Virus record (IMG/VR): IMGVR_UViG_3300030376_004646
Coordinates: 1-25,741 of that record
Source: a virus
Taxonomy: Duplodnaviria > Caudoviricetes
Strand: one strand, 5' to 3'
DNA length: 25,741 bases
A model generated the notes under the pieces. That model ran no database searches. It was given only the letters and a program-made list of their open reading frames with translations, and was not told the origin of the DNA. Position 1 is the stretch's first letter. Each line of letters begins with the position of its first letter. The position numbers were made by a program, and so were the translations under genes. This document shows positions 4,701-25,126 of this stretch, one piece after another.

Positions 4701-4704
4701 TTAA

Positions 4705-5694: not shown

Positions 5695-5726
5695 ATGTAT
5701 AAGCCTCTGTTATTTGTAAATTTTGT

Positions 5727-6719: not shown

Positions 6720-6764
6720 ATAAAAGACTCAAAAAGAATAAACAAAAAATACTGACAAAATGGT

Positions 6765-6960
6765 CACGACAACGACTACGACTCTTATAGAGTCTGTCGT
6801 AGTGTCGCTGTGTCGGCGCAATGTCGCAGTCGATGTCGCAACTCATGTCGCAAACGCTTGAAAGCACTGATTTTACTGGGTTCGTGATGTCGCACTTCGT
6901 GTCGCAACTCATGTCGCAAGCATTTTGAAACTGCTCTGAAAAAAACACGTTTTGCGACAC
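6765..6960. repeat. iteron-like repeats plus palindrome; probable replication origin
   Basis: RTGTCGCA at 6821, 6833, 6845 and at 6887, 6899, 6911 (12-bp period); inverted copy TGCGACAC at 6953; dyad ACTACGAC-TCTTATAGAGTCT-GTCGTAGT at about 6775-6803. Confidence 0.7.
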
Positions 6961-6994
6961 GCTTTTGACACTATTTTGCTCTGTTTTGTTGTTA

Positions 6995-7417
6995 TCAAAC
7001 AACATTTGCTCTCTCATTGATTGAATCAGCAATCATTTGTTTGTACTTTGTCGCTGAATAATTGTGTGAACGATCTATAAAATGAACGTAAATATTTAGG
7101 TTATCTCCTGTGAATGATTTGTTTTTGTAGTCATCACCTAAGAATCTGATGTCGATTTTTTGACGCGATTCAAGCAGTTCTAATAGATCAGATTCGAGTC
7201 TATATGTAATGATTTGATCGACATATCTAATCGCAGAGAGCGTCTCAATTCGCTCTGCAACAGAAAGAATAGGCTTCATCTTCTCAGCTCTCTCAATAGA
7301 AGGATCTTCATGCAAATAAACAATCAAATACTCGCAGTTGTCAGCACACTCTCTTAGGGCGCGAATATATCCGATATGCATGACATCGAAAGCTCCTGCA
7401 ATGACTCCTGTTTTCAT
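6995..7417 (-). CDS. cytidylyltransferase family protein (TagD/RfaE domain II-like)
   Basis: GAFDVMHIGY (HIGH-like), KPILSVAER, IRYVD, GDDY, DRSHNYSAT. Start trimmed to MKTGV, which has an ATGA overlap with the cupin stop. Confidence 0.88.
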   Translation of the reverse strand: MKTGVIAGAFDVMHIGYIRALRECADNCEYLIVYLHEDPSIERAEKMKPILSVAERIETLSAIRYVDQIITYRLESDLLELLESRQKIDIRFLGDDYKNKSFTGDNLNIYVHFIDRSHNYSATKYKQMIADSINERANVV

Positions 7418-7746
7418 GTTGTCGCTCTCTTTTTGTTGAAAACGCACACAAAATACAAATCGTCTTGAGAGTCGTTAATGACTTTGTGAAAAACATTGTC
7501 TTCAATAAGAACGACATCATTGCTTTTAACGTCTATTGTTTCGTTGTCTAGCTTCATTTTTCCTTGCCCTTGTACGAAAAAATAGATTTCTTCTTGACCT
7601 TCGTGAGAATGACCTGTTGTTTGTTTGTTTGCTTTTAGTCTTGTGCTACTCAGCGTCAAGTCTCTTAGTCTTGTGTTGTCTTTAACGATGTATCGATCAT
7701 CTTGTTTGACTAAATCGCCTTGTATGTTTTGTATATTGAGCTTCAT
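7414..7746 (-). CDS. cupin domain protein (sugar isomerase-like)
   Basis: GHSHEGQEEIYFFVQGQG and NVFHKVIN metal-binding cupin motifs. Confidence 0.85.
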   Translation of the reverse strand: MKLNIQNIQGDLVKQDDRYIVKDNTRLRDLTLSSTRLKANKQTTGHSHEGQEEIYFFVQGQGKMKLDNETIDVKSNDVVLIEDNVFHKVINDSQDDLYFVCVFNKKRATT

Positions 7747-7747
7747 A

Positions 7748-9547
7748 TTAAAAAGGTGGTTCTTCATCGATCATTTTATTGCTCTTTGCATACGCAATAT
7801 CACGCTCAATTGTTCGAACTGACACGCCTGTTTTGCTCGAGATTGCATCTTTGTCAGCTCCTTCATTGATCATTTGTGCAACGACTTCACGTCTCATTTC
7901 GAGATCGTCTTTGTCTTTTGACATGACTCCGTTTGAATAGAGCCACGCAATTGGCAGTGCATCTTTACCATAAAAATGACGCGTCTTTTCAAACGACCAC
8001 TTAAATGACGTTTCATACGTTTCAGCGTCAATGTCGAGTAGGGCGTCTGAATCGTTGTTTGCCAGCTCTGTCTTGATAACGCCGTCAAGCACCACTGTCT
8101 TGGACATACTTCCGAGCTGGGTGCCTGCTTTTGATGAATGATGAACGAACCATGCGACACGATCTTGTTGACGCAACTTAAGTAATAACGGTTGCACGTC
8201 AGATACCCATTCGTCTGCTTGATTGCTATCAGTCATGCTTGTGAGCGTCAGAAGGTTGTCTAAAATCACTACCGCTGGATCTATCTTCTCGATCATGTCC
8301 CAGAACCATGTTTTTCCTTCTTCTGTATTGAGCGGTAACAATCCATGCTCTTGATCGTGATGTGACACGATAAATAAGTTCTTTTCTACGCGTTGTATAA
8401 GCTCTTTTTGTCTCTCGAAAGACTCAGCACTGAACATGTTGAGCTGTTGATTCAGACGTTCTTGCATGGCGTTTGGTGGCATTTCTGCATCGATATAAAC
8501 GACTTTGACAGCGTTCGGTATCTTGTAATGCCCGAAGTTATAGCCTGACGCGAGTGCGATTGACATGACAGAAGTGCCTAGAGATTTGCAATGACCGGGA
8601 GCGCCATGAATCATAAAAAGATTTGATCTCGCCATGAGATTTTCAATGAGCCACACTTTCGGTGGATACTCAATGTCTTTAAACGCTTTATAATCGTGAT
8701 AGACGACAGTGTGTGACGCTTCTTTGTGATATTCGTTGTCTCTCGCATACTTAACGACATCGAAGTATTCTTGTCGCTCATAAGCATCGTATAGATCGTC
8801 TTTTTCGTCCCAGTGCGTTGGCGGTTTCACAATGCTCGTTTTAATGTTCAACGATTCGAGCTTTTCTTTTAATGCGATTGCACAATCGAAGCCTGCATCG
8901 TCATTGTCAGGGAAAATAATCACTTCATTAAAGTCTTTGAGCTGTGTCCAGTTGCTTTGCTCTAGTGCTGAGACTCCGCCATGCCATGCACAGATGATGT
9001 TCTCTTTCGCAAGTTCTTTTGCACCTAAGAACGCTTTTTCGCCTTCGACTACGATGACGGGCTTCGCTGAATCGCCTTCACTTAATAATAGTGGCATTAA
9101 TCCAGTTGGTCTTTTCATGATCCAGTTATTTGAATCAACGCGACTAAAAGGACGATAAATCTTACCCTCGAATCGCATTGTGCAGAACGCATCATTAAAG
9201 CGTGAATAGATCTCTGCTTTCTCTGCAAGCGCTCTCATTTCGTCTGAGCTGTATTCTTTGCTCTGTATTTGTGTATCGTTGTTTCTCACTGGCGGTAGTT
9301 TTTGTTCAGTGATACCCAGTGTTTCTAAAAATTCTGTGATGCTTGATTCACCTCGCTCTCTTTGTATGAGTGAGAGCATGCCACCACCTTCTTCATTTTC
9401 GTGATCGTAGAATGTGCCTTTAGAGAGATCGATGCAGAGTGAGCCTTTGCGACCGAACCTTAATTCTTTGTCGCTACTGAGCTTCTCGTTGGGTGATCCT
9501 AGAAGTGCAATCGCAATCTGTTCTGCGTGTAATGCTACGTCAATCAT
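7748..9547 (-). CDS. primase-helicase (TOPRIM plus RecA-like AAA_25 plus C-terminal HTH)
   Basis: TOPRIM motifs VEGEK and FPDNDDAG; Walker A GAPGHCKS, YIDAEM, ILDNL, HHSSK; C-terminal HTH GVSVRTIERD. Confidence 0.88.
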   Translation of the reverse strand: MIDVALHAEQIAIALLGSPNEKLSSDKELRFGRKGSLCIDLSKGTFYDHENEEGGGMLSLIQRERGESSITEFLETLGITEQKLPPVRNNDTQIQSKEYSSDEMRALAEKAEIYSRFNDAFCTMRFEGKIYRPFSRVDSNNWIMKRPTGLMPLLLSEGDSAKPVIVVEGEKAFLGAKELAKENIICAWHGGVSALEQSNWTQLKDFNEVIIFPDNDDAGFDCAIALKEKLESLNIKTSIVKPPTHWDEKDDLYDAYERQEYFDVVKYARDNEYHKEASHTVVYHDYKAFKDIEYPPKVWLIENLMARSNLFMIHGAPGHCKSLGTSVMSIALASGYNFGHYKIPNAVKVVYIDAEMPPNAMQERLNQQLNMFSAESFERQKELIQRVEKNLFIVSHHDQEHGLLPLNTEEGKTWFWDMIEKIDPAVVILDNLLTLTSMTDSNQADEWVSDVQPLLLKLRQQDRVAWFVHHSSKAGTQLGSMSKTVVLDGVIKTELANNDSDALLDIDAETYETSFKWSFEKTRHFYGKDALPIAWLYSNGVMSKDKDDLEMRREVVAQMINEGADKDAISSKTGVSVRTIERDIAYAKSNKMIDEEPPF

Positions 9548-10506
9548 ACTGTTATAAACTCTATGTTTTTACAAAAATAGTTAATGGTTTTTGATAATCC
9601 TTCTCTCAGCTCTATTTTGGGTTTCCAGTCGAGTTCAAATGACGCAAGACTAATATCAGGCTTTCTTCTTACAGGATCATCTTGTGGTATATCGCAATGC
9701 TCAATCTCGCTTTCTGTTTTTGTCAACGCAACGACAAGATCAGCGAGTTCAAGCATCGTAAATTCGTTAGGATTGCCCAAATTAACAGGGCTTTTGTTGT
9801 ATCTTGAGCGCATCAATTTCATTAGCGCTTCAATCAAATCATCGACATAACAGAAAGAGCGTGTTTGCTGTCCGTCTCCGTAGATTGTTATGTTTTCATT
9901 GTTGATTGCTTGTACGACAAAATTTGAAACAACGCGACCATCGTTTGCGTTCATGTTGGGCCCATAAGTGTTGAAAATTCTTGCGACACGAATATCGACA
10001 TTCTTCTCGCGTTGATAATCAAAGAAAAGCGTTTCTGCTGATCGCTTTCCTTCATCGTAACAGGCGCGTATTCCTGTTGGGTTGACATTGCCGTAATATT
10101 GTTCGACTTGTGGGTGCATCGTAGGGTCACCATAGACTTCGCTTGTCGATGCTTGCAGTACAGTTGCAGAGTTCTTTTGTGCAAGATCTAAGACGTTGAG
10201 AGCGCCTATGACACATGTTTTCAATGTCTTAATAGGGTCGCTCTGATAATGCACAGGACTCGCTGGGCAAGCTAAATTGTAGATCTCGTCAACATTCAAA
10301 TTTATTGCTTCTGCAACATCGTGTTCAACGAACTCAAATTGTTGCAAATGATTAATGTTTGCTATGTTTGTAGTTGATCCAGTTGAGAAGTCGTCTAAGC
10401 AAATAACGTAACTGTCATCATCGATGAGTGCTTTACATAGGTGGCTTCCTAAAAAGCCAGCACCGCCAGTTACAAGTACGCGTTTTTTGTCGAATTGATT
10501 TCTCAT
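9544..10506 (-). CDS. uxs: UDP-glucuronate decarboxylase (UDP-xylose synthase)
   Basis: VLVTGGAGFLGSHL, IYNLACPASPVHYQ, ASTSEVYG, CYDEGKR, RIFNTYGP, DGRVVSNF, QTRSFCYVDD, DDP..R.PDI are all signatures of the UXS subfamily of extended SDRs. Confidence 0.93.
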   Translation of the reverse strand: MRNQFDKKRVLVTGGAGFLGSHLCKALIDDDSYVICLDDFSTGSTTNIANINHLQQFEFVEHDVAEAINLNVDEIYNLACPASPVHYQSDPIKTLKTCVIGALNVLDLAQKNSATVLQASTSEVYGDPTMHPQVEQYYGNVNPTGIRACYDEGKRSAETLFFDYQREKNVDIRVARIFNTYGPNMNANDGRVVSNFVVQAINNENITIYGDGQQTRSFCYVDDLIEALMKLMRSRYNKSPVNLGNPNEFTMLELADLVVALTKTESEIEHCDIPQDDPVRRKPDISLASFELDWKPKIELREGLSKTINYFCKNIEFITV

Positions 10507-10526
10507 TGTTCCTTGTTTTAAAAGGA

Positions 10527-10572
10527 TGTAGAGAGCCGTGGAGGATCAACATGTAATAATTGGCTCTCTACA
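10527..10572 (-). promoter_or_regulatory. intergenic stem-loop (11-bp perfect stem, 24-nt loop)
   Basis: TGTAGAGAGCC (10527-10537) pairs with GGCTCTCTACA (10562-10572); followed by CCTTTT on the minus strand. Confidence 0.65.
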
Positions 10573-10588
10573 CCATTTGGGGGTTACT

Positions 10589-11200
10589 TCAAAACGGAAT
10601 TTCTTCTGTCTCTTGTTGCGAGATTGCAGAGCCATTTGTTTTGCTCTCATCAAGCGCTGTCTCTTCAAACGTATCTGTCGTTGCTTCAAATGAATCGTCA
10701 GCTCGCCAACCTTGAATTTCAAACTCAGGTATTCGAGAGTTGCCTTTGCCGTATGCGACTGCTTTTGATCCTTTGTATTCTACGACAGCAACTTTTCCTG
10801 CATTTTCAGCAATTTGAGGATGCAACGCTGTATATAAAGCAAGAAAGCCTTGCGAGACACCTTTCGATGTTGATGACCATGTTCTTACACCGAGATCTTT
10901 CGTGTAAAGATCGACAGAAAAGCCTCTTTTGTATTCGAGTTTTTGTTCTTCAGTGAGAAGGGTCCCGTCATTGCGCTGTGTCGGTAGCGATTTTCTTATT
11001 CCTACTTCATCGTCCCAGTGCCAATCAGGTGAAAATCCTTCACTGATCCAGCCCCAACCGCTTTTGATTGAGTTCGGATCAAGTAAAAATTTTTCAACTG
11101 TTACTTCATCGTCACCTGCTTTCCAGCCATTGACGCTTGGCATGTATCTTACATATTTTCGTCCGTCCATATTATCCTCTAGTCCTAGTAAATCACCCAT
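10589..11200 (-). CDS. putative single-stranded DNA-binding protein
   Basis: Aromatic beta-rich core, acidic tail ending EEIPF, strong AAGGAG RBS, location in the replication module. Confidence 0.65.
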   Translation of the reverse strand: MGDLLGLEDNMDGRKYVRYMPSVNGWKAGDDEVTVEKFLLDPNSIKSGWGWISEGFSPDWHWDDEVGIRKSLPTQRNDGTLLTEEQKLEYKRGFSVDLYTKDLGVRTWSSTSKGVSQGFLALYTALHPQIAENAGKVAVVEYKGSKAVAYGKGNSRIPEFEIQGWRADDSFEATTDTFEETALDESKTNGSAISQQETEEIPF

Positions 11201-11215
11201 AGTTTTTCTCCTTAA

Positions 11216-11299
11216 TTAGATGGTTATTATTAAAATGAAAACGACCGCAACTGTTATGAGCGCAATCAGTTTTTCAAAATCATTGTTGTTGTAATGCAT
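11216..11299 (-). CDS. small membrane peptide (27 aa)
   Basis: Hand translation MHYNNNDFEKLIALITVAVVFILIITI; fills the gap between the glycosyltransferase and the SSB-like gene. Confidence 0.4.
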   Translation of the reverse strand: MHYNNNDFEKLIALITVAVVFILIITI

Positions 11300-12137
11300 C
11301 AAATTCTCTTTGGCTTATTTCTGTTAGCTTCATTCCGTAATTATTTATTCCTTCTGGTATTTCAACTCCTTGTTTGCGTATGAGCTGATTGTTTCTAAAT
11401 GATGAGTAATCGACATGATGCTGATAACGACCAAACTTCCAGCTGACAGTGCAAACGTCAGGATGTTGATCGACAAGTGATTGCGCCATTTGCAATCGAC
11501 CATCGTCTGCATAAAGCTCGTCTGTGTTACCGCCTTTCATTTGCATGGTTCCTGTTTTGTAGCCTAGAAACGCATTGAATAAGATTGTGCAAAACCCATC
11601 TTTTAAGACACGCAAGCAAAGATCTGTGTCTTCGTTGTAACGTCCTCTCCAGCGATGTTGTAGATCGTTTCTTATCAATAGCATTGAATAAACGCGTGTA
11701 TTCAAATAATAAGGCGGTACAGCCGATGCCGCATTTGCAAAGAAGCCATAATTAAATCCTGAAATACCTACATTTTCATAACGCTCTGTAAAATCTTCTG
11801 CACATTTGAATATTGTTCCTGAAGCAACTCTGATCTTTGCATTGCGATTCAGTCTCAAAAAACTTGCAATGTTGTCGTCAAGAATCCAATGTCTTTCATA
11901 TCCTCTCTCTATCGAATCTTCCCAAACCCAGTTTCGAGCAGGGATACTGCCTTGTCCTAAATTACTGAAAGGAAGAACCTTAATCTTCTTCTCATCAATG
12001 TGTTCGTTGTACGCATCAAACTCTTGTTGCTCAATCACAATATGATAGGGAACATTCAATCGCTCTAATTCTTTTTGCGTAAGTCTTGAGTCTGCTCTTC
12101 CTTTAGAAATGATGTAGACAGGGTATTTAGGATTCAT
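11280..12137 (-). CDS. TAGT/GREB1-like GT-A glycosyltransferase (family linked to DNA base glycosylation)
   Basis: YPVYIISKGR, ARNWVW, HWILDDNI, NTRVYS, WRGRYNEDTDL, MKGGNT..LY, GRYQHHVDY. Start trimmed to MNPKY, which has a GAGG RBS. Confidence 0.8.
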   Translation of the reverse strand: MNPKYPVYIISKGRADSRLTQKELERLNVPYHIVIEQQEFDAYNEHIDEKKIKVLPFSNLGQGSIPARNWVWEDSIERGYERHWILDDNIASFLRLNRNAKIRVASGTIFKCAEDFTERYENVGISGFNYGFFANAASAVPPYYLNTRVYSMLLIRNDLQHRWRGRYNEDTDLCLRVLKDGFCTILFNAFLGYKTGTMQMKGGNTDELYADDGRLQMAQSLVDQHPDVCTVSWKFGRYQHHVDYSSFRNNQLIRKQGVEIPEGINNYGMKLTEISQREFDALQQQ

Positions 12138-12387
12138 CGATATACCTCTTGTACTTGTTTCTAAATTTAGGAAAAGCCGGATACCAAACACTTTTTGTCA
12201 AAGGTGTCAGGTTTTGTTCAATCAGATCTGCAAAATTTTTGTAATCTAATTCGTCTCTGAAACGAATAGTGATCTCTGCGTAAGGCTCAACTTGCAATTG
12301 CAAAAACTCAGGCATGTTTTGCCATTCGATTTCCCATGGCTCTTGCTCAAGTTCTTCAAGTAAAAACATTTGTTTCTCATCTTTCAT
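12127..12387 (-). CDS. small acidic protein overlapping the glycosyltransferase start
   Basis: EWQNMPEF...IRF...FADLIEQ.LT..TKSVWYP, a pattern I recall from genes adjacent to phage TAGT-like glycosyltransferases. Confidence 0.75.
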   Translation of the reverse strand: MKDEKQMFLLEELEQEPWEIEWQNMPEFLQLQVEPYAEITIRFRDELDYKNFADLIEQNLTPLTKSVWYPAFPKFRNKYKRYIDES

Positions 12388-12563
12388 CAATGAATCACTC
12401 GCTCATGAAATTCACCACACAATTGCTCGAAGCGTTCATTGATGTAATCGTCATACTCTAAATATTCTTTTTTGTTTGCAATGCTGAACTTGACGTATTC
12501 TTCGTGCATCCATTTAACGAAGTCCAAGAACTCTTCGAAGTTTCTGTTTTTTTTATCAGACAT
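12387..12563 (-). CDS. hypothetical protein (58 aa)
   Basis: Not in ORF track. MSDKKNRNFEEFLDFVKWMHEEY...ERVIH; overlaps both neighbours (TGATG coupling). Confidence 0.7.
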   Translation of the reverse strand: MSDKKNRNFEEFLDFVKWMHEEYVKFSIANKKEYLEYDDYINERFEQLCGEFHERVIH

Positions 12564-12990
12564 CGATGCGCGCCTTTAAATAAGACATCAGCAAGTTTAT
12601 AAATTGATCGAAGTGCATACGAGCAGGCGCTTCATTGAACTCGACATCGTAACTATCAGCAACAAAGTTAAACATCATCACAGGAAATTGAACTTGAATG
12701 TCTTGATAGTCGTACTTGTAAATCAGAATCGGTATTTGCTGTCTCTCTTCGCAAACATCGCAGACTTGATTCCACCATTCGTTGCGTGGTAAATCATTCG
12801 ATTGTTTCGCATAGCGCTTACATTCTATTTGTAAATTATCGATACCAATGAGATCTGCACCGCCATCTCTTGTTTGAGTCAGGTTGCGCTCAAGAGAGTA
12901 GGGCAGTCTGTAATTCTCAAGCTCTTGATTGATCATGTTCTTGATCGTATTCTCGAAAGCATGTCCTTTTACTCTACTAGCTCTCGACAC
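12556..12990 (-). CDS. Holliday junction resolvase (Hjc-like PD-(D/E)XK)
   Basis: SRVKGHAFE, GGADL, IECKRY, WWNQ motifs. Confidence 0.8.
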   Translation of the reverse strand: MSRASRVKGHAFENTIKNMINQELENYRLPYSLERNLTQTRDGGADLIGIDNLQIECKRYAKQSNDLPRNEWWNQVCDVCEERQQIPILIYKYDYQDIQVQFPVMMFNFVADSYDVEFNEAPARMHFDQFINLLMSYLKARIDV

Positions 12991-13135
12991 GTTCTTTCTC
13001 TTCTCTTAATGCTTTGCGCAACATGTTACTGATAAGATCTTTTATTTTCTGTTGCTTGAAATCCGCCAATGCGCGGACTTCTTGATGTAATTCTTCATCG
13101 ATCCACAGTGCTTTTTTTGATTCTTTTTCGCTCAT
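12977..13135 (-). CDS. ribbon-helix-helix DNA-binding protein (52 aa)
   Basis: Not in ORF track. MSEKESKKALWIDEELHQEVRALADFKQQKIKDLISNMLRKAL fits the Arc/CopG beta-alpha-alpha pattern; it is the first gene of the leftward operon. Confidence 0.7.
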   Translation of the reverse strand: MSEKESKKALWIDEELHQEVRALADFKQQKIKDLISNMLRKALREEKERVES

Positions 13136-13331
13136 TCTCTACAAGTCAATAAATTCAGTATCTAACAGACGTTAGTTAATAGTAATGTGTCAATATTAAA
13201 TATATATTTTTATATATTTCAATTTGAATATAGATGATGAATAGATGACAGAATGATAAATAATGATTGTTTACAGATAACAGTCGTGTATTATTATATA
13301 TATTAATAAATCAATTTAACGAGGAAAAAAC
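13136..13331. promoter_or_regulatory. AT-rich divergent promoter/control region
   Basis: Non-coding gap between divergent operons; TTTACA-N16-TATTAT on + from 13270; TTGACA on - at 13188-13193; short direct repeats. Confidence 0.6.
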
Positions 13332-13679
13332 ATGAACAATACAACAGAAATTAAAAAATCATTAGATTCAACTGCTAGAGAAGTTAGAAGAATGAGAAAC
13401 TCATGGCATAAAACTCTTAGAGACAACTATGTTACAAAAATCTTTGATGGACTTTATCTTTTCGAGAATGGTGACACAAAAAGATTGATCGAAAGAAATG
13501 ATCGATGCAGAGATTGGGATATCTATTGGACTGACGCAACACTGAAGTCATTGATCGTTGAACACAAGATCTTGACAGAGCAAAGCAGTGAACCAAATCC
13601 TGATCGCTATATGCACAACGAAAAAACATTGAGATCAGCAATAATAGAGTGTTATCGAGATTCAATAATTACATATTAA
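13332..13679 (+). CDS. hypothetical early protein (115 aa)
   Basis: ORF with GAGG RBS; first gene of the rightward unit. Confidence 0.8.
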   Translation: MNNTTEIKKSLDSTAREVRRMRNSWHKTLRDNYVTKIFDGLYLFENGDTKRLIERNDRCRDWDIYWTDATLKSLIVEHKILTEQSSEPNPDRYMHNEKTLRSAIIECYRDSIITY

Positions 13680-13708
13680 AAATAATTTCATTTATATAGG
13701 AGAACGAA

Positions 13709-13894
13709 ATGAAAAAAACAAAACACTTTAATGATTTAACTGAAGAAACGCAGTCAAAAGTCATGAGCTTATATTGTCAATTAGATGATCTTGAGACTAA
13801 CTCAAAAGAGTTTAAGCGTATAAGACGAGAGCTTGACAACATAAGAAAAGAAAACGGAATCACATACAAAGAAGCATGGATCGGTAGTATGTAA
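13709..13894 (+). CDS. hypothetical protein (61 aa)
   Basis: AGGAG RBS within the repeat. Confidence 0.8.
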   Translation: MKKTKHFNDLTEETQSKVMSLYCQLDDLETNSKEFKRIRRELDNIRKENGITYKEAWIGSM

Positions 13895-13917
13895 TTTCAT
13901 TTATATAGGAGAACGAA

Positions 13918-14160
13918 ATGAAACAAACATTCAAAGTTGATTGCAATGAAAATCAATATGGAAAATGTGAAGCAGATATTGTGACTTTAAAAGAGTTCAT
14001 TGAAGATGCTGAATCATGGGAATTAGAGCAAGGAAATCAATTCGGAGCATTTAAGCATGATGAATACACAGTTGAGAATCTAAAGAAAATGAAAACAGGG
14101 CAGACGATAACAACATATTCACCTCATGGTTGGGACACGAAAGTTACTCGAATCAAATAA
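13918..14160 (+). CDS. hypothetical protein (80 aa)
   Basis: AGGAG RBS within the repeat. Confidence 0.8.
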   Translation: MKQTFKVDCNENQYGKCEADIVTLKEFIEDAESWELEQGNQFGAFKHDEYTVENLKKMKTGQTITTYSPHGWDTKVTRIK

Positions 14161-14183
14161 TTTCATTTATATAGGAGAGAAAA

Positions 14184-14927
14184 ATGAAACGCAAAAAGCG
14201 TTCACAAACGCACGGGAAAATCGTCACACTCATTCGACTCAATAAACATGAGAGTGAACTGTCTTTAGCTGAGAGAAGAAAGCTATTAAAAAAACAACGC
14301 GCAGAGATTATTGACTATCTCGGTGTCGGTTCACACATGCACATGAAAAAGAAACATTACGTTGAGTTGCATCACAGTAACCCTTATAAAATGCCTGAGT
14401 TTGAGAAAGCGATCAGACACGCAATACGCAACAAAGCAGACATCGTTCTAAATCGTATCGGTACACGCATGAAGAATCTCAAGTTCATCGATCTCGTTTA
14501 TGACGCAAGTGAGAATCATTCAGTTAAGTTCTATGTGTGTTATCAAAGTGTGCGAGCGATTGACGCAAGCGTTTTAGTTGCGATCAGTAACGAGCATAGA
14601 GCAGAAGTGTCTCGCAACACGAAATACGCACTCGCAAAGCTCAAGCGCAAAGGAGTAAAGCTCGGATCAAAAGACATCAACAAGCTCACTGAACACGCAG
14701 TTAAATCGCACACAGACAAGCGCTTAGAGTTTGCTGTGAAGATGCGACCTGTCGTTGAAGAGATACAACAATACGGTGCAACAACGCTTTCAGAAATTGC
14801 TAAAGCGTTAAATATGCGCGAAATAGAGACTAGATATAATCCTGAGAAGTCCAGCTGGCACGCTTCAACAGTAAGTAATTTGCTAAAAAGCATCGAAGAA
14901 ATTAAAGAAAATAAAAAATTCTCTTGA
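14184..14927 (+). CDS. serine recombinase/resolvase-like protein, apparently catalytically degenerate
   Basis: PEFEKAI, EHRAEVSRNTKYALAKLKRKGVKLG (helix E) and C-terminal TLSEIAKALN...W..STV; the YxRVS motif reads LIRLN. Confidence 0.75.
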   Translation: MKRKKRSQTHGKIVTLIRLNKHESELSLAERRKLLKKQRAEIIDYLGVGSHMHMKKKHYVELHHSNPYKMPEFEKAIRHAIRNKADIVLNRIGTRMKNLKFIDLVYDASENHSVKFYVCYQSVRAIDASVLVAISNEHRAEVSRNTKYALAKLKRKGVKLGSKDINKLTEHAVKSHTDKRLEFAVKMRPVVEEIQQYGATTLSEIAKALNMREIETRYNPEKSSWHASTVSNLLKSIEEIKENKKFS

Positions 14928-14953
14928 CAGTAAATTTTAAAAAAAGATATATT
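14924..14953 (+). promoter_or_regulatory. possible sigma70 promoter
   Basis: TTGACA-N18-TATATT upstream of the ORF at 14989. Confidence 0.4.
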
Positions 14954-14988
14954 TCTTTCAGATAAATTTTGATAAATAAAAGTAAAGC

Positions 14989-15255
14989 ATGAAGAAAGAT
15001 AGAACAGAATCGATCAACGTTTATAGAGCCAACGGAATCAAAACCAGAAGATTTGAGCCTCGCTTAGTGAGACGAGAGGATGTCGAAGATTTGTTGACCA
15101 CGCTTTTATCAATGACAAAGCAACTGCAAACACAGCTCAACATCAAACAATGTGAATCGTGGCTCGTTACACACGCACAAAACATCATGACTGAAGGCAC
15201 ATACATGCACAAAGAATTGACTCTACAGCGAGACAAAATCGACAAATGCGTATGA
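14989..15255 (+). CDS. hypothetical protein (88 aa)
   Basis: ORF on the operon strand. Confidence 0.65.
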   Translation: MKKDRTESINVYRANGIKTRRFEPRLVRREDVEDLLTTLLSMTKQLQTQLNIKQCESWLVTHAQNIMTEGTYMHKELTLQRDKIDKCV

Positions 15256-15358
15256 ATTTTAAAAACACACGATTGAAAAACGTAAACAATAAAGCGTTTG
15301 ATAATTGTAACGTTACAAATACCAAGTTTCTGCAATCTGTTCTGATTGCGAAAAATCA

Positions 15359-15571
15359 ATGAAAACCAATAAACACAGCGAAAGCGAGGACATGAACAAA
15401 TATAGACATATGCATATAATATATAGACTGTATAGTTGTTCTGAAGCACTAAGACGCACTGTAAATTTTGTGCTTATCAATGCTTTAAGAATGAAACGTC
15501 TGTTATTCGTATTCTTGCAATCGCTCTTTGCTATAGGAGAGCAATATGAGAGCATTAGAACACCCGAATAA
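15359..15571 (+). CDS. hypothetical protein (70 aa), doubtful
   Basis: ATGA-coupled to a 36-aa ORF at 15252-15362; no clear RBS. Confidence 0.3.
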   Translation: MKTNKHSESEDMNKYRHMHIIYRLYSCSEALRRTVNFVLINALRMKRLLFVFLQSLFAIGEQYESIRTPE

Positions 15572-15788
15572 TTTTCATACGTTTATATTGTATGAATCAC
15601 AAAACGAGATTGGTGGAAACACCATCACTGTCAGAAAAGACAGCATAATCTCATATCGCGCTGAACGCTCAGATTCAGCCGCAACGATAACGACACCTGA
15701 AGGTACGTTCACTGTCACGATGTCGCCTTATGACATTCAAAAGATGATCACGAAGCACATCACATGGAGACAAACCAATGGTCGGTAA
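15546..15788 (+). CDS. hypothetical protein (80 aa)
   Basis: AGGAG RBS; overlaps the exonuclease start. Confidence 0.75.
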   Translation: MRALEHPNNFHTFILYESQNEIGGNTITVRKDSIISYRAERSDSAATITTPEGTFTVTMSPYDIQKMITKHITWRQTNGR

Positions 15789-16737
15789 AGTAACAGACGA
15801 TGGCTCTCTTTCTGCAAGTGGTGTTTCAGCGCTTCTTGGTAACAATCCTTACAAGTCAAAAACTGAATTGCTTGACGAGAAGATCAGAGCGCGAGCTGGT
15901 GAAAACACAAGACTAGACGAGCAACCATCTTTGATGAGAATGGGTGACGTTCTTGAAAACACTGTGCTTGATGAAGCGTGTCTCAGAATGGGTCTCGATA
16001 ATGTCAGATTGAATATTGATGAGCCACTAATACATGAGCGATTACCGATACAGGGAAGTCCTGATGGGATTGCAAGTGCTGGAGTCAATAACTCAATCGT
16101 AATAGGCACTGATTACGACAAATGCATATTTACGCCTGACAGTGACATTGTTCAACTCAAAGGCGATGGCATCTTAGAGTGTAAGTGTACGAGTGCATTT
16201 CCTGAAGATGTGCTTCCTGCATGGCGTGGCAAAGATCAACTGTTCGCAAACATGGAGTGTGCAAACATGACATGGGGCGCTGTTGTCGTACTCTATCAAA
16301 GCGTTTTCTTAAAGATATTTGTGTTTACGCGTGACGAAGATTGGGTCAAAAGATTCGAGCCAGCTGTGATTGATTTTGAGAGACGCATTGTTGAGCAAGA
16401 TTATTATGATCCTGAGAGTTCTGAAGATTGCGACATTTTATATCCTTACGATGTCGAAGAAACAGTCGAGCTTGAAGATGATCTTGAGCATCATTTTTCT
16501 GAGATCTTACATGCGAAGAGTCTAATCAAGAACGCTCAGCAATCAATCAAAGATCATGAAGCTGTGATCAAAGAACACATGCAAGAAAACAAACACGCAT
16601 TATGTGGCACACACAGAGCAACGTGGGGAAGTCGTACATATAAAGCACAAAAAGAGAAGATTGTTCCTGCAAAAGAAGCGTACACAATTCGATCTAAAAC
16701 ACTATCAATCAAAGAGGAAGATTATGGACTTGACTAA
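15778..16737 (+). CDS. YqaJ/lambda-exonuclease family protein
   Basis: SASGVSALLG.NPY, G..LE, GSPDG, LECK motifs. Confidence 0.88.
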   Translation: MVGKVTDDGSLSASGVSALLGNNPYKSKTELLDEKIRARAGENTRLDEQPSLMRMGDVLENTVLDEACLRMGLDNVRLNIDEPLIHERLPIQGSPDGIASAGVNNSIVIGTDYDKCIFTPDSDIVQLKGDGILECKCTSAFPEDVLPAWRGKDQLFANMECANMTWGAVVVLYQSVFLKIFVFTRDEDWVKRFEPAVIDFERRIVEQDYYDPESSEDCDILYPYDVEETVELEDDLEHHFSEILHAKSLIKNAQQSIKDHEAVIKEHMQENKHALCGTHRATWGSRTYKAQKEKIVPAKEAYTIRSKTLSIKEEDYGLD

Positions 16738-16975
16738 AAAATATGTCGGCAAAGTTGCATACAACAGACAAAAGAACATGAACGAAACATATGAAGCGAT
16801 CAAAGATTTTGCAGAAAAGACTGGACACACTCCAACGCGTGTTGAGCTTGCAAAGCACATGAAGATCGGACTAGGCGCAGTTGATAAGCGCTTACAGCAT
16901 TTGTTTAATCACTGTGAGTTTGTCGATAAAGACGAGAAGAACGGGCAAATAGTTCTTTATAGCGAAGATGTGTAG
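16724..16975 (+). CDS. LexA-N-like winged-HTH DNA-binding protein (83 aa)
   Basis: YEAIKDF...GHTPTRVELAKHM....VDKRLQHL; start trimmed to MDLTKK (GAGG RBS); no peptidase domain. Confidence 0.7.
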   Translation: MDLTKKYVGKVAYNRQKNMNETYEAIKDFAEKTGHTPTRVELAKHMKIGLGAVDKRLQHLFNHCEFVDKDEKNGQIVLYSEDV

Positions 16976-17138
16976 CAGTAAAGATAATGAGCCTTTTAAA
17001 GCATTTGTGAGTCGCATGTATTACAGAAACATATTAGAAAGAGCGCGACACAATGAAAAGCCTTATAAGAATCTATTTCGCTATTACAGAAAGAACTATC
17101 AATTCATACATGATCAATACAAAGAGAATAAATCATGA
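16968..17138 (+). CDS. hypothetical protein (56 aa)
   Basis: Not in ORF track. MCSSKDNEPFKAFVSRMYYRN...KENKS; ATGA-coupled to the integrase. Confidence 0.65.
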   Translation: MCSSKDNEPFKAFVSRMYYRNILERARHNEKPYKNLFRYYRKNYQFIHDQYKENKS

Positions 17139-18220
17139 AGTCTGATACGCAAAATAAACGCATTAAGATCAAAACGCTGAGTAATCAAGAGCAGTCGTTT
17201 TATCTGTATTACTACAGAAACAACAAAGCGCATTTGATGAAGATAGCAAGTCAAGGAACTGACATCGATACTGTGAGACGCATTGCGAGCGACATAGAGA
17301 GTCGTATGAGTGTTGATGCACATTATGATCCATTGCTTGAGAGGCAAAAATCAAGACGTGAGACTAAACATGTTGATATAACTCTTCATCAGTTATTCAC
17401 AGACTATTTAGATGACATCAACAAGAAGAAGTCACACGATAAGATTCAGCAGATTTACAACAACAACATCAAAGAAGTGCTAGGCGATAGAAAGATCAGC
17501 ACGATTGAGAAAGCAGACATTGTTGAGCTGAAGAGAAAGATCAGCAAGAGAGCGCCTTACGTTGCAAACTCTGTCATCACATATCTGCGTTCTGCGTTTA
17601 ACTTTGCAATTGAGAGCGAGCTTGTTGAGAAGAATCCATGCAATCGCATTAAAAAGCATGAAGATGTTGAGCGTAATCGTATTTTGTCAAACGATGAGCT
17701 GAGACGTGTTTTCGAAGTGCTAGATGAAAAAGCGAAGAATAAAAACAATCATCAAAGCGTTGCATTTATCAAGTTATTGATCTTCACAGGCGCAAGAGTT
17801 TCAGAGATTGCAAACATGCGTTTCAGCGACATTAAAGATCGTGTCATAAGACTGTCTCAGCACAAGACAGATCATCTAGGACAAGACAAAATAATCTATT
17901 TAAACGATCACACATTGTCGATCATAAACGCTTTAAAACGCACACATGAAAAAGCAAAAATCATTGGCATTAAAAGCCCACGTCATTTGTGGGATTCAAT
18001 CAGAAAAGAAGCGAACATTGAAGATGTGAGATTGCATGATTTGAGACACACATACGTCTCATTCGGCATCAATACTCGCACTGTGTCATTTGATGAAATG
18101 AAAGATCTAGTCGGTCACAAAGACGCTAAATCAACGCAACGCTATTTAACGAGATCAATCGATACAAACTTAGCTAACGCTGACGCTGTTTCGAATGAGC
18201 TTTTAAATCTAATCAACTAA
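17135..18220 (+). CDS. int: tyrosine integrase
   Basis: Catalytic motifs TGARVSEI (R), HKT (K), LHDLRH (HxxR), VGH, TQRY (Y); N-terminal arm-binding-like domain. Confidence 0.93.
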   Translation: MKSDTQNKRIKIKTLSNQEQSFYLYYYRNNKAHLMKIASQGTDIDTVRRIASDIESRMSVDAHYDPLLERQKSRRETKHVDITLHQLFTDYLDDINKKKSHDKIQQIYNNNIKEVLGDRKISTIEKADIVELKRKISKRAPYVANSVITYLRSAFNFAIESELVEKNPCNRIKKHEDVERNRILSNDELRRVFEVLDEKAKNKNNHQSVAFIKLLIFTGARVSEIANMRFSDIKDRVIRLSQHKTDHLGQDKIIYLNDHTLSIINALKRTHEKAKIIGIKSPRHLWDSIRKEANIEDVRLHDLRHTYVSFGINTRTVSFDEMKDLVGHKDAKSTQRYLTRSIDTNLANADAVSNELLNLIN

Positions 18221-18238
18221 AAATAAAAAGGAACTAAA

Positions 18239-18496
18239 ATGAGTGAAAACATTGAAACAATCACATTTGATAACGAGCAATACAACGTCTCAGATCTAAA
18301 CGAGCAAGCAGTTCAACATTTTAATATTTTGATGAAACTGCAAAACGAATCAAACGAGCAATCGTATCAATTAAGCAAAACAAACATTGCGATTGAAACG
18401 ATGTCTGATCGCTTTAAAGCATTGCTTGACGAGCTTGATATAAAGCCTGTTGAAGAGACTGTTATTGATACAGAAACTAAAACGATAGAGCAGTAA
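18239..18496 (+). CDS. hypothetical coiled-coil protein (85 aa)
   Basis: AAGGA RBS; ITFDNEQY.VSDL N-terminus. Confidence 0.8.
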   Translation: MSENIETITFDNEQYNVSDLNEQAVQHFNILMKLQNESNEQSYQLSKTNIAIETMSDRFKALLDELDIKPVEETVIDTETKTIEQ

Positions 18497-18545
18497 TTTG
18501 TTTGTAAAAACAATTTTGCTTTTGTTTATATTTAAAGGAACAAAC

Positions 18546-18992
18546 ATGCCAATAATCAACATGAAAGGACTTGATCTGATCAAAGAGTTTGAAGGTCTAA
18601 AAACAGACGCTTACAAAGATCGAGCAGGTGTCTTAACAATCGGCTACGGAAGCACAAAAGACGTAAAAGAAAATGATTCAATCACTGAACAATTTGCGAC
18701 TGCAATGCTTGATAAAGAGTTGCGTGAATACGAAGGCTACATTGATAATCTTGTAAATGTTCCTTTAAATTCTAATCAACACTCAGCATTGGTTAGTCTA
18801 ATTTACAACATTGGGCCCACGCACTTTAAAGACAGCACACTTTTGAAAAAATTAAATGAAGGTAAATACGATGAAGTGCCTTATCAAATGAAGCGTTGGA
18901 ACAAAGCAACAGTGAACGGAGAGCTAACAGAGCTTGAAGGACTAATTAGACGCAGACAAGCAGAAGCAGATCTATTCAATGAGGACTCGTAA
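18546..18992 (+). CDS. GH24 phage lysozyme (endolysin)
   Basis: LIKEFEG...AYKDRAGVLTIGYG (E/D/T triad) and GLIRRRQAE. Confidence 0.93.
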   Translation: MPIINMKGLDLIKEFEGLKTDAYKDRAGVLTIGYGSTKDVKENDSITEQFATAMLDKELREYEGYIDNLVNVPLNSNQHSALVSLIYNIGPTHFKDSTLLKKLNEGKYDEVPYQMKRWNKATVNGELTELEGLIRRRQAEADLFNEDS

Positions 18993-19255
18993 TGATTGAA
19001 AATGAATTTCAAATTGACGAACTAATACATAAAAAGGGTCAAGAATATGGACATCCAATGAGGTTTTTTCGTCAGTTATCGAAAGTGTGGAGTGGAGTGC
19101 TTGATGTTGAAATCACTCCTCAGAAAGCGGCGACTATGATGCTGTTGTTCAAGTCAGTGCGTTTGTATAACAACTCAAACAAAGCTGATACTCAAGATGA
19201 CATTCAGGGTTATCTTAAAATTGTCGAGATTCTAAATGACTTTGAACAGTCATGA
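18992..19255 (+). CDS. DUF6378-like all-alpha protein
   Basis: GQEYGHP...WS..L...M...K..R...D...DIQGY pattern. Confidence 0.75.
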   Translation: MIENEFQIDELIHKKGQEYGHPMRFFRQLSKVWSGVLDVEITPQKAATMMLLFKSVRLYNNSNKADTQDDIQGYLKIVEILNDFEQS

Positions 19256-19365
19256 ATGATGAGGAGCGTCAAAGATTAATAGCGCAAGTCGAGCATTTTC
19301 GTAGGCAATATCGAATTGCATTAGTGGGTCTAGTGATTCAAACGATACTTTTAATTTTGGTTTAG
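19252..19365 (+). CDS. small C-terminally hydrophobic peptide (37 aa)
   Basis: MNDEERQRLIAQVEHFRRQYRIALVGLVIQTILLILV; ATGA-coupled; stop overlaps the convergent gene's stop. Confidence 0.55.
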   Translation: MNDEERQRLIAQVEHFRRQYRIALVGLVIQTILLILV

Positions 19366-20933
19366 TTTTGCGTTACGTCTCGCCCAACTCTTCCTGACAC
19401 TACTGGTATTGAAGTTCTTCCTACTTGTCCACTTCCTCTCAGCAATTCTAGTAAAAGTTTTTGCGTTGCTGGGTTTTGATATCCAGATAATATAGTTCCC
19501 GCTATACCGGCTGACAAAGGATCAACCATTGCGCCACCACCTAAAAGACCACCAGCAGTTAATGTTCTTGCTGAAGTTCCTGAGTCTGATAGCGTTTGTC
19601 CAATCATGTTTTGCCCAAGCTCTGCTATATCTTGCATTTTACTTTCGCCACGAAATGTTTTTGTTTTTCCTGATGATTTATCGGCGGCTTTACCAGCTTG
19701 TCTTAGTTGAGCTGGTGTAAAAATATTTCCTTGATTTGCTGATGCAGTTCCAGCTTTTGAAATGACGAGTAGATCACCATAAGCGCTTTTTGCGCTGTTG
19801 TACGCTGTAATCAAATCTTTAGGGTTGTCAGATTGTAGTGCATCGTCTAAAACTTTATAAACATCATCGTAAACATCGCCCATCTCTCTTTGAACAGCGT
19901 CACCTGAAGTTCGGTATCGTCTGATTTGCGATCTTAACCATGAGTCTGCTTTTTGCAAAGATTCGCCTGTCAATCGATTGTCTTTTGCTTTTCCGTAAAA
20001 CAATTTGTTTAGTCTGATATTGATGTCTTTTATTTCATTTGGTTTTAGCAAAGAATTGCTCAAAGCATTATCAATTTTTGATCTTAGTTGATTGATGTCA
20101 TTTACTTTTAAATTTTTTACACTTCTATCAAGTGCGTTTCTTACTTGTCTGTCTAAATATAAGCCTGCATCGTCAACAACGCTCGGTAGCTGTTTGTTAA
20201 TTTTTTTCAAAGCGTCATTGATTACAGATCTGTTAAAAGTTTGTGTTGATCGCTGTAATGCTTTTTCAGTTCCTATGAGTGGCAATGAACTAACTGTTTC
20301 TTCCAATCTTTTAAGCGTGTCTCCGACAACTGTTCCTTGCGTTGCTTGACCGGGCGTTAATTGTGTTCCTTTGTTCATTAATCTTTTAGCGGCTTCAGAG
20401 ACTTTAGGCAAAACAGCGCTGCCAACTGGAGACGCAACTGCTGTTATACCACCTGAAGCGACTGCGCTTTTCGCTCTGTCGATAGCATCTCCTTCTGAAA
20501 CACCTGCGCCATAAGCGGCTCCTAATCCAACTTGTGGGGCTGTTTGTTTAGCAATGTTTTTCGCTTGATTAATTCTTCTTCCAGCACCCGCAACTCTTGC
20601 CCCTGTAGCTGTAATATTTGCGGCTGTTCCTGTTCCACCTGTAACTGCGCCAACAGCAAGTGAAGGAATTAAAGCGCCACCAATTTCTGTTGAATATGCA
20701 AGAGCTGGATTGTCAGTTCTGAATTGATCAATTTCTTGTCTTACTTCTTTGGCAATATCATCATAATCTTTGTTGCTTGCTAATGATTTTGCAAACGCTT
20801 CAACTTCATCACCAAAGCCTAGAGCTAATCCTTGTCCAAGCGCTGATCTAACAATGTTTTTAAAATTCGTTGAAGATCGTTCTTCTTCAGCGCGTTTTTG
20901 AGGGTTATATGTTTTGTTTTTTAATTCGCTCAT
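19362..20933 (-). CDS. putative DNA ejection/internal virion protein (523 aa)
   Basis: Ala/Gly-rich and helical with GQGLALGFGDE; last gene of a podovirus-type virion operon. Confidence 0.65.
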   Translation of the reverse strand: MSELKNKTYNPQKRAEEERSSTNFKNIVRSALGQGLALGFGDEVEAFAKSLASNKDYDDIAKEVRQEIDQFRTDNPALAYSTEIGGALIPSLAVGAVTGGTGTAANITATGARVAGAGRRINQAKNIAKQTAPQVGLGAAYGAGVSEGDAIDRAKSAVASGGITAVASPVGSAVLPKVSEAAKRLMNKGTQLTPGQATQGTVVGDTLKRLEETVSSLPLIGTEKALQRSTQTFNRSVINDALKKINKQLPSVVDDAGLYLDRQVRNALDRSVKNLKVNDINQLRSKIDNALSNSLLKPNEIKDINIRLNKLFYGKAKDNRLTGESLQKADSWLRSQIRRYRTSGDAVQREMGDVYDDVYKVLDDALQSDNPKDLITAYNSAKSAYGDLLVISKAGTASANQGNIFTPAQLRQAGKAADKSSGKTKTFRGESKMQDIAELGQNMIGQTLSDSGTSARTLTAGGLLGGGAMVDPLSAGIAGTILSGYQNPATQKLLLELLRGSGQVGRTSIPVVSGRVGRDVTQN

Positions 20934-20935
20934 AT

Positions 20936-22198
20936 TTACTCAAAATCCTTTTTGCTGAATATTCTTAAAACAGGATTATCAGGATCACTTGTATCAATGT
21001 ATGCTTCACCTTCTTTAATTGCGTTTGTGTCTGCCATGCTTCCTATTATGCTTTCGTTATTTTCATTGACTGCTTGAGCGTCTATGTTTTGATAAACAAG
21101 TGGCATTAAATCAGGGTTATTACTCATATAAGCGTCAAAACCAAGCGTTGTTTTTTGTTCTTCAAAAAATTCTTCTTTAAGTTGCAACAGTTTTCGATCT
21201 CGCTCTGCTTGTTGAATTGCAGTCGCAACAATAATTCTGTTGGCTTCTCTGTTTTTACCAAGCCCTACTGTTGCTCTCGCAAACATCATTTGTTCAAAAT
21301 CTGATGAAGCACCCGATCCCGGTGGTCTCATTCTTGGTGTTGCGTAACTTGCTATCGCTTCAAAAACAAGTTGATTTGTGACGTTAGGATCATCAATGCC
21401 TGTAATTTCAGAATATAGTTGTCTAGGGCCCAATGTTGCTTTTTGCATAATACCTGTGTCGAAATTTTCTTGGTTCAATATTATTTGTGCTTGCCTAAAT
21501 TTAGGAACTAAAGCGGTGTCTGTTTGAAGTATTTTCTTATCTTCAGATAATTCTTTTCTTCCTTCAGTGTAGTCAATTTCTTTATATTTCCACTCAGCTT
21601 TATCACCCAAGTCAATATTTGTTACAGGCGTTTTTGGCTTAACAAACTCCATTCGTCTTTGCATTTCGATCTGATCTGCTTGAGTTATTACGCCATCGTT
21701 AGGTGTAGGATCAGAGTTTGCCCAATCAAAATTCTCTTGCGCATTTGGTTTATTAGGTAATTTACCAGTTGCTATTGCTAATTGTGCTTCTTGTTTTGAT
21801 ATTTGTCCTGTTGATACCATCTGTGCAAGTGTTTGTTCGAATCTAGCTCTCGCGTTTATCTCTTCTTGTTGTTTTTGCATAGCAAGCGTATTCGCTTGTC
21901 TTTGTTGAGCTTCAGCGCCTATGTTTCTTCCTGCAAATGCGTCACTGAGAGAGTAGAGCATGTTGCCTAGTCCTACGTTACGAGCGTTTCTTTGTTGTTG
22001 CTCATAAGTGTTTGCGTCAGCTTGCGTTTCAAAGAAGCCACGTTTTAATGCTTCTTGCTGTGCTTGATCAGGTGTAAAACCGCCACCTCTTGCGAAGAAA
22101 GAGTTGATGCGTCTAGGCTCTTGCACTGCAACACGATTCTGCTGTTGCTGTTGCTGTCGCTTTTGCATTTCTTCTAAAATTTTAGGATCAATATACAT
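20936..22198 (-). CDS. putative DNA ejection/internal virion protein (420 aa)
   Basis: Gln/Ala-rich N-terminus, PGSGASSDFE motif, gene position. Confidence 0.6.
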   Translation of the reverse strand: MYIDPKILEEMQKRQQQQQQNRVAVQEPRRINSFFARGGGFTPDQAQQEALKRGFFETQADANTYEQQQRNARNVGLGNMLYSLSDAFAGRNIGAEAQQRQANTLAMQKQQEEINARARFEQTLAQMVSTGQISKQEAQLAIATGKLPNKPNAQENFDWANSDPTPNDGVITQADQIEMQRRMEFVKPKTPVTNIDLGDKAEWKYKEIDYTEGRKELSEDKKILQTDTALVPKFRQAQIILNQENFDTGIMQKATLGPRQLYSEITGIDDPNVTNQLVFEAIASYATPRMRPPGSGASSDFEQMMFARATVGLGKNREANRIIVATAIQQAERDRKLLQLKEEFFEEQKTTLGFDAYMSNNPDLMPLVYQNIDAQAVNENNESIIGSMADTNAIKEGEAYIDTSDPDNPVLRIFSKKDFE

Positions 22199-22204
22199 TG
22201 CTCG

Positions 22205-23014
22205 TTACACTCCCGGCTTGTTAAAGTAACCGCCAGCAAATGCTGAACCGAGCAAGCCTGCGCCTGCACCAAGTATGTCTCCGAAACCTACTTTTTGTCT
22301 TTGTGTTTCATTCGTAGACGAAGGCAAGAAACTGACACCAGACTTGAGACGATCTAGCTGTACGTCAGGATATCCTTGCGCTCTCATGAACTCGCTGAAG
22401 TTTGCGTCAAGTTGAGCTTGTTGCATTTGTCTGTTCATTGCACCGACATTTCCTAGCAGTCCAAGCGTTTTGTATTGGTCTGATAAAAGACCACTTTGAA
22501 TTCCTGTTCTGTATGAGCGGTCATCTAGTCCCAGCTGGGTTGCTGTGTCAAAGCCAGACTTTCTTAGATCTGAGACTGTGCGACCTACAGCGTCATAGTA
22601 GCCACGGTCTGCGTCTCCTTCTAGTAGAGTTGAACGAGATCCACCGAAAGCGCCTGCTCCTATGGCTCTGTCTTGACTGTCTAAAATTTGCAATTGTCTC
22701 GCTCTGTCGAGATCTTGTATTGAACGATCAATGACTTCACTCTGGTACGGATTCATATAAGGCGATATATCAAGTGGTGCGCCACCCATGTTTGCTAGTT
22801 CAGCTCTAGGGTTATATCCCATTGAGTCACCGAACATTCCTCTTGTTGCTTCAAATGAGTCAATATCGTCAGGAGAGTATCCCGCAATTTGAGCTTCAGT
22901 ATAAGGTTGGAAAGGTATATCAGCCGCAGATTTAGCGCCTGAATAAACTTCTTTATACATTGCAAGAAGTTCGGGGTTAATTTCTGTTGAAGTTGTCGTG
23001 GAACCCTTACTCAT
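22205..23014 (-). CDS. putative DNA ejection/pilot protein (269 aa)
   Basis: MSKGSTTTST start, YMNPY, GAGAFGGSR, Gly-rich hydrophobic C-terminus. Confidence 0.65.
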   Translation of the reverse strand: MSKGSTTTSTEINPELLAMYKEVYSGAKSAADIPFQPYTEAQIAGYSPDDIDSFEATRGMFGDSMGYNPRAELANMGGAPLDISPYMNPYQSEVIDRSIQDLDRARQLQILDSQDRAIGAGAFGGSRSTLLEGDADRGYYDAVGRTVSDLRKSGFDTATQLGLDDRSYRTGIQSGLLSDQYKTLGLLGNVGAMNRQMQQAQLDANFSEFMRAQGYPDVQLDRLKSGVSFLPSSTNETQRQKVGFGDILGAGAGLLGSAFAGGYFNKPGV

Positions 23015-23024
23015 GGATTTTTAC

Positions 23025-25124: not shown

Positions 25125-25126
25125 AA

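Follow-up and report, generated by a model that had tools for sequence, protein, structure and literature searches.

The genomes of one small clade of marine podoviruses are purged of CC/GG dinucleotides wherever the amino acids leave a choice, most strongly in early genes; gains of CC/GG are suppressed within the clade, and restriction-type sites that are otherwise avoided are spared where they overlap a CC/GG step. From these observations we infer, as the probable explanation of both purge and sparing, a covalent mark at CC that would shield overlapping restriction sites yet cost fitness. The stretch of DNA analysed (25,741 nucleotides, hereafter the window) belongs to a marine podovirus (record 74% complete) and carries genes for an SU10-type portal, terminase, primase/helicase, integrase, lysozyme, nucleotide-sugar enzymes and a TAGT glycosyltransferase. 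All 19 habitat-labelled DNA runs with this stretch are marine or seawater metagenomes, and one more run is unlabelled.

A sequence-only reading had counted by hand 6 CC and 10 GG against 44 CG and 46 GC in positions 14161..14880 (no strand assigned), and a program count returned exactly these numbers. The total of 16 CC/GG compares with a mean of 61.8 and a minimum of 36 in 20,000 base shuffles. Obligatory positions in Pro, Gly or Trp codons account for twelve of these, the ribosome-binding site for one and optional positions for three, in line with the remark that most of those remaining lie in such codons or in the ribosome-binding site. The scarcity is not local to this stretch but genome-wide (1..25741, no strand assigned). 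In the whole window rho(CC/GG) is 0.57, and 0.50 between genes; synonymous shuffling of 33 genes gives observed/expected ratios of 0.31 for C|C and 0.38 for G|G at codon junctions, and the 16 NCCN contexts are low without exception (0.03-0.54). With amino acids fixed, 316 optional CC/GG are observed against 1,095 expected, 0.29 of expectation, so the scarcity survives amino-acid correction and the odds ratios do not approach 1. The shortage noticed by eye in the integrase and primase genes is also real: the tyrosine integrase (17135..18220, + strand), the most purged large gene, holds 2 optional CC/GG against 48.5, and the primase/helicase (7748..9547, - strand) 20 against 86.0, absolute ratios that vary with model parameterisation. 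The dinucleotide coefficients of this per-gene model are collinear and were left out; its relative per-gene ratios and trimer terms were used. An additional avoidance of GGCC disappeared under a stricter shuffle (6 vs 8.2). Avoidance of anti-Shine-Dalgarno sequences or of G-quadruplexes was likewise rejected, since the coding strand is as poor in CC as in GG, and since runs are cheaper rather than dearer.

The clade also purges restriction words, among them GCWGC, CGACG, AAGCTT and most palindromes ending in G/C, and here CC/GG makes a difference. In the window, 6-bp palindromes ending in G/C number 10 against 76.8 expected when free of CC/GG, but 22 against 23.0 when their terminal base is doubled (p 5e-8), and those with an internal CC/GG occur 7 times against 7.4 expected. 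The site CCAGCTGG (14851..14858, no strand assigned) is an example, a CAGCTG palindrome with both ends doubled into CC/GG; when CAGCTG is left out, the counts are 10/72.4 for free and 16/21.2 for touching sites (p 2e-5). Sparing is specific to doubling, since palindromes with another G/C flank (4/40.9) or an A/T flank (6/36.6) are not spared, as against 22/22.8 for doubled ones. A codon-level conditional logit, with errors that are anti-conservative, gives a touching-minus-free difference of +2.24±0.29 in the window, +1.23±0.35 in the clade contig L379/L115 and +0.71±0.38 in the relative G001, as compared with -0.12, +0.14 and -0.21 in three sister sets. In G001 the palindrome contrast itself is weak (6/25.4 vs 9/82.5, p 0.12). 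Pooling 74 sister loci gives 0.40 for free, 0.38 for touching and 0.36 for internal sites, with p<0.01 in one of the 74, L277. This undepleted sister (0.90), one of 205 loci screened, has touching sites at 16/22.6 vs 3/24.2 (p 1.4e-3).

Shielding could also be non-covalent, if a phage or host protein bound CC/GG on the incoming DNA, covering sites and hindering early genes. Such a protein predicts the purge, the sparing and the early-gene gradient alike. It should, however, also cover neighbouring sequence, and CC/GG steps that adjoin a site without overlapping it bring no sparing (-3.45±1.52, -1.24±0.72 and -1.81±0.86, on small numbers); moreover, G001 and a second relative, G006, spare one side only. 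We consider a bound protein quite unlikely.

A within-word flank test over eight contexts was used in place of an unstratified scan, which is confounded by word identity and missed the positive controls. These controls were the phages Iggy and CAjan, in which DpdA installs preQ0 at GA (PMC10484667, PMC7544227). G|A is the best context in both, with 21/47.6 vs 3/102.6 in Iggy (p 2e-8) and 12/34.2 vs 2/44.3 in CAjan (p 1.5e-3). In the window the best context is C|C (6/6.5 vs 1/31.8, p 1.4e-4), as it is in G001 (p 0.029) and G006 (p 0.022), p-values that singly fail an 8-fold correction. The test finds nothing at C|C or G|G in the relatives G007 and G008 combined, in DMS3 or in HTVC010P, and DMS3 gives one nominal signal, at C|T (p 0.013). 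Other flanks in the window are G|G, also spared (7/9.1, p 0.017), G|C, at 7/12.6 vs 5/17.0 (p 0.21), which reads the G of GC and so bears on C in GpC only indirectly, and C|G, at 0/13.9, which concerns CG.

The window spares both classes of palindrome (8/10.2, and 14/12.7 for the C..G class, the latter against 2/14.2 in G001, p 0.001), so the marked base is suggested rather than pinned. In G001 and G006 sparing is one-sided: among the independently chosen words that G006 avoids, sites with C followed by C stand at 22/32.9 and the mirror class at 2/23.8, a contrast between classes being the only use made of these lists, since they were chosen on free copies. The marked base is probably a C followed by C, or a G preceded by G, as sequence cannot separate the C from its paired G. 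A phosphorothioate motif is CpC; to judge from the one-sided sparing, this modification appears unlikely and was set aside. The restriction words purged also differ between these genomes, being GCWGC and CGACG in the window and G001, and GAAGC, GTCAC and CACTG in G006, which under one CC signature hints at different host pools.

Gains of CC/GG are rarer than expected. At 2,225 synonymous sites polarised on G001, changes that create CC/GG number 64 vs 215 expected, the suppression covering T>C, A>G, A>C and T>G, and changes that destroy CC/GG number 20 vs 10.5. A polarity-free two-state model, which assumes stationarity and independent sites, gives gain ratios of 0.24-0.44, each of the six bootstrap intervals lying below 1, and loss ratios of 1.5-3.7 (1.5-2.3 for the first C of CC, 2.7-3.7 for the second). 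New CC/GG appear within the clade at about 0.3 of the neutral rate, a pattern that fits weak purifying selection at each site. In each of the four free-base classes the value is low (0.16 vs 0.38-0.57 for C before C, 0.05 vs 0.31-0.45 for G before G, 0.04 for NCC and 0.04 for NGG), so mutation of one fixed C is insufficient.

These data bear on the proposal that CC/GG is modified and then lost by deamination of 5mC, made by a CC-specific C5 methyltransferase resembling M.CviPII. The spared class is indeed the one expected if the first C of CC is methylated (PMC9636781), and losses by C>T are in excess (13/28 vs 105/488). Hypermutability does not, however, predict a roughly 3-fold drop in gains, with transitions and transversions both suppressed; both Cs are lost, and loss of the first C does not exceed that of the second. 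C5-methylase (PF00145) had no hit in the window's record (74% complete) or in G001 and G006 (records 73-79% complete), but matches are present in the undepleted G007 and G008. Mutational loss through 5mC is thus highly improbable, and loss of either C fits selection rather than 5mC deamination or UV. The sequence-only reading is therefore supported on a modified base under counter-selection, for which site sparing and gain suppression speak, and not on deamination as the route of loss. UV-driven loss of CC, or oxidative damage, had a point in its favour in the marine or seawater origin of every labelled run. The excess of TC/CT that had been put forward as a check is weak (TC/GA 1.07 and CT/AG 1.02, as compared with 1.20 for CA/TG and 1.26 for the enriched GC), AA/TT stands at 1.04, and since TC, CT and TT are not depleted the UV pattern is excluded; in addition, the same collections yield sister phages that are undepleted, and damage has no link to spared sites, so that we give it a negligible probability.

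The strength of the purge varies along the genome. The rightward early operon (13332..18992, + strand), which contains a recombinase-like gene, a YqaJ exonuclease, the integrase, small genes and a lysin, shows the strongest purge, with 12/289 optional positions occupied vs 69/445 in the packaging genes (p 5e-7), and the same gradient is found in G001 (7/243 vs 37/462, p 0.008). Lengthening an existing CC is cheaper than making a new step (0.33 vs 0.05-0.085; control 0.46). Pro, Gly and Trp are somewhat fewer than in sisters for the portal and integrase orthologues, other genes being inconsistent, and codons for these residues retain about one CC/GG step per 22 bp. Two genes are without the CC/GG purge, L112 2541-3605 (0.66) and L379 2993-3289 (0.92); they are probably recent imports, and hence the purge may date gene acquisitions.

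The preferred reading, a covalent and costly mark, would work as follows. An enzyme would mark CC steps on progeny DNA, and a marked base inside a recognition site would prevent cutting, lifting selection against that copy of the site. Each mark would carry a small cost, greatest in the genes read first from incoming DNA, arising perhaps from slower transcription or from cutting by modification-dependent nucleases. Owing to this cost per mark, optional CC/GG would be purged and the steps in Pro, Gly and Trp codons retained. The trade-off would be that the protective step is itself purged ~3.5-fold, most of all in early genes.

No mark would be needed if CC were avoided as the PAM of a host CRISPR system (CC for type I-F, NGG for Cas9) or as the target of a host nuclease. 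In favour of such avoidance, the purge is context-free, affects both strands and selects weakly at each site, and runs are cheaper than new steps, just as type I-F selects a single pair within a G run (PMC5059440). Pseudomonas aeruginosa phages under CRISPR I-F also carry less of this dinucleotide, but there the CC PAM stands at 8.27% vs 8.74% (PMC12174588), an effect of ~5% as against ~70% of optional sites in the window, and DMS3 scores 0.93 vs 0.34 in the window. PAM avoidance moreover leaves the spared restriction sites unexplained, and we hold it to be just as unlikely as the bound protein. The analysis in PMC4246573 is confined to types I-C, I-E and II.

The purge is limited to a single small clade. 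At codon junctions CC+GG stands at 0.28-0.46 among loci whose TerL is at least 89% identical, or whose 502-aa virion protein is at least 92% identical, to that of the window, clade members being non-independent samples. It is 0.74-1.02 in the other TerL loci (25 of 25), 0.68-1.07 in the other portal loci (79 of 79, among the best 80 of 483) and 0.70-1.01 in the 79 major-capsid loci outside the clade, none of which is depleted. The 79 new major-capsid loci did not recover the clade's missing quarter, with its head and tail-fibre genes. Non-clade loci of at least 4 kb (n=488, counting redundant records) have a median of 0.92 and go no lower than 0.61. G006 is intermediate (0.55), and the syntenic G007 (0.86) and G008 (0.91) are undepleted. 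In the primase tree the window, L111, L027, G001 and G006 group apart from G007 and G008 (100/100, midpoint root); the TerL tree leaves the position of G006 unresolved. L387 (0.61) and L388 (0.66) are possible intermediates, and no modification-like gene was found among their translated ORFs, read by eye.

A slot between a 58-aa gene (12387..12563, - strand), coupled upstream of it, and a putative SSB holds four modification-type alternatives in these relatives. In the window (11280-12390) it contains the TAGT glycosyltransferase (PF20691, E 3e-45; 11280..12137, - strand) and an 87-aa partner (12127..12390, - strand) that is lost along with it. G001 and G006 carry an N4/N6-type methylase there (77% identity between them; this allele is L003 2839-3969), L379 has an ABC-ATPase-GNAT in TAGT's place (856-2061), and G007 and G008 have a C5 methylase. 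The C5 methylase lies in two overlapping frames (G007:C1:16161-17280, G008:C1:2175-3591), its N-terminal half in one frame and the rest in a long overlapping ORF. The slot also varies inside single samples: runs X2, X20 and X12 have a contig with ~1.2 kb of other DNA there, its length matching that of the GNAT allele, and run X6 has TAGT. In X2 and X20 the TAGT allele is in the minority, at a contig depth of 6-13 vs 30-35.

Could TAGT alone make the mark, with the signature following it? The gene is intact and stands near nucleotide-sugar genes, and the window, which bears TAGT, spares most strongly and on both sides. G001, G006 and L379 are depleted, however, with other genes in the slot; the TAGT allele is a minority one in X2 and X20; 78 of 78 other TAGT loci (among the best 80 of 403) are undepleted at 0.61-1.29 and show no pooled sparing, which disqualifies TAGT as a general marker; and the characterised clusters with TET and C5 methyltransferase mark GpC (PMC8256090), yet GC is enriched in the window. 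We consider this very unlikely, less probable than the bound protein or PAM avoidance. Equal depletion in relatives without modification genes, here the glycosyltransferase, had been named as grounds for dropping the mark. G001 is depleted as strongly as the window and TAGT was not found in it (79% complete), but its slot holds another modification-type gene, so TAGT as sole maker is refuted and the mark itself is not. TAGT is not required for the signature.

Other genes were also considered as markers and rejected. The methylase family of G001 shows neither purge nor pooled sparing in 78 other loci (35-53% identity, among the best 80 of 156). The 58-aa gene occurs in undepleted kin, as do homologues of the 247-aa recombinase-like gene, of a 194-aa gene, which has no informative homologue, and of a PD-(D/E)XK nuclease; all core genes that were checked have homologues in undepleted G007, G008 or both. 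Given a mark, two makers seem to us equally possible: a host enzyme, and the slot enzymes, the G001/G006 methylase being the ancestral writer and TAGT and GNAT its replacements or decorators. A phage gene in the unsequenced quarter of the genome comes slightly behind these, and a diverged core gene is doubtful. As G006 purges other restriction words and yet shares the signature, the evidence leans slightly to a phage-borne writer. A more elaborate and rather unlikely scheme has an unreported enzyme install a handle on CC that the slot gene (TAGT, ABC-GNAT or N4/N6 methylase) decorates variously in one population; if true, such a mark would shield restriction sites and mask CC and NGG PAMs.

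Among known systems, the GA mark of DpdA phages is the closest in kind, being a mark in a dinucleotide context that protects overlapping restriction sites, with a matching flank-sparing footprint. It differs in its step, GA rather than CC/GG, and in the depth of the purge, the marked step at codon junctions being depleted to 0.67 in Iggy (L531) and only mildly, to 0.88, in CAjan, as against 0.34 in the window. A term search of the accessible text of PMC10484667 gave no mention of GA depletion or avoidance in Iggy. A tblastn search with DpdA of Iggy and CAjan (E 0.05) found no match in the window, G001, G006 or L379/L115, all incomplete records, and on this ground the clade is not a member of the DpdA system. 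QueC gave no match in the window, G001, G006 or the L379/L115 contig; a PF01702 search missed Iggy itself and was not used.

M.CviPII and M.CviQIX of chloroviruses are CC-specific C5 methyltransferases that modify the first C of CC (PMC9636781), the base favoured by our flank test, but they are enzymes of eukaryotic viruses, and the depleted records show neither a C5 methylase nor a deamination spectrum. With the phage clusters of C5 methyltransferase, TET and glycosyltransferase, which mark GpC (PMC8256090), the window shares a TAGT-family glycosyltransferase (PF20691); those clusters need a C5 methylase and a TET, neither of which was seen in the window, where GC is enriched and TAGT swappable. 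TET/JBP (PF12851) matched nowhere, controls included, with no Pfam hit among the 35 window proteins. CmoX requires GC (PMC12783734) and is not the system of a CC signature. A SMRT study reports m4C motifs such as CCNGG and GGWCC in marine myovirus-like genomes, and little methylation in podoviruses (PMC8919816). Avoidance of restriction sites is described in phages, and in Murciavirus for the leading region (PMC12455610); the clade resembles it in purging restriction words and in its early-region gradient, but in the clade a site overlapped by CC/GG escapes avoidance, and what varies along the genome is a two-letter step.

In the literature searched, chiefly non-subscription papers, we found no report of a CC mark, or of spared restriction sites, in bacteriophages, and the CC mark proposed here from genome sequence is likely an undescribed member of the dinucleotide-context DNA modifications of phages. 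A test that recovers two published marks here predicts, from sequence, a CC modification in an uncultured clade of marine phages. The clade is also a natural experiment, since its syntenic relatives range from depleted through intermediate to undepleted and a single slot is filled by any of three enzymes. An enzyme that writes marks in a CC context would be useful for probing epigenomes, and it would hide the PAMs of type I-F (CC) and SpCas9 (NGG). Five unrelated TAGT viral loci (L046, L091, L093, L047 and L056) show strong CpG depletion (rho 0.06-0.27), which suggests marks in a CpG context.

Searches of the window found no attP and no RNA families. None of 13 candidates pointed to a host when TerL was compared with genome contigs, and in a TerL alignment of 24 loci the closest (78-80%) are short contigs in unrelated MAGs, which indicate no host. 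Two nucleotide-sugar genes vary among relatives: a gene resembling NAD-dependent nucleotide-sugar epimerases/decarboxylases (9544..10506, - strand) is absent from one same-species contig, and in place of the UDP-glucose dehydrogenase (4705..5694, - strand) G001 has a GlcNAc-transferase. The clade member L027 has a PAPS-reductase-like gene (1817-2713) directly 3' of its primase. The CC/GG-poor stretch counted by hand, with its three optional CC/GG, is housed in a gene for a 247-aa protein (14184..14927, + strand) that resembles serine recombinases (Atlas neighbours PF07508/PF00239). Serine recombinases have the catalytic motif Y-x-R-V-S; at the presumed position of this motif the protein reads L-I-R-L-N, and it may thus be catalytically dead. 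It is 84-94% conserved within the clade.
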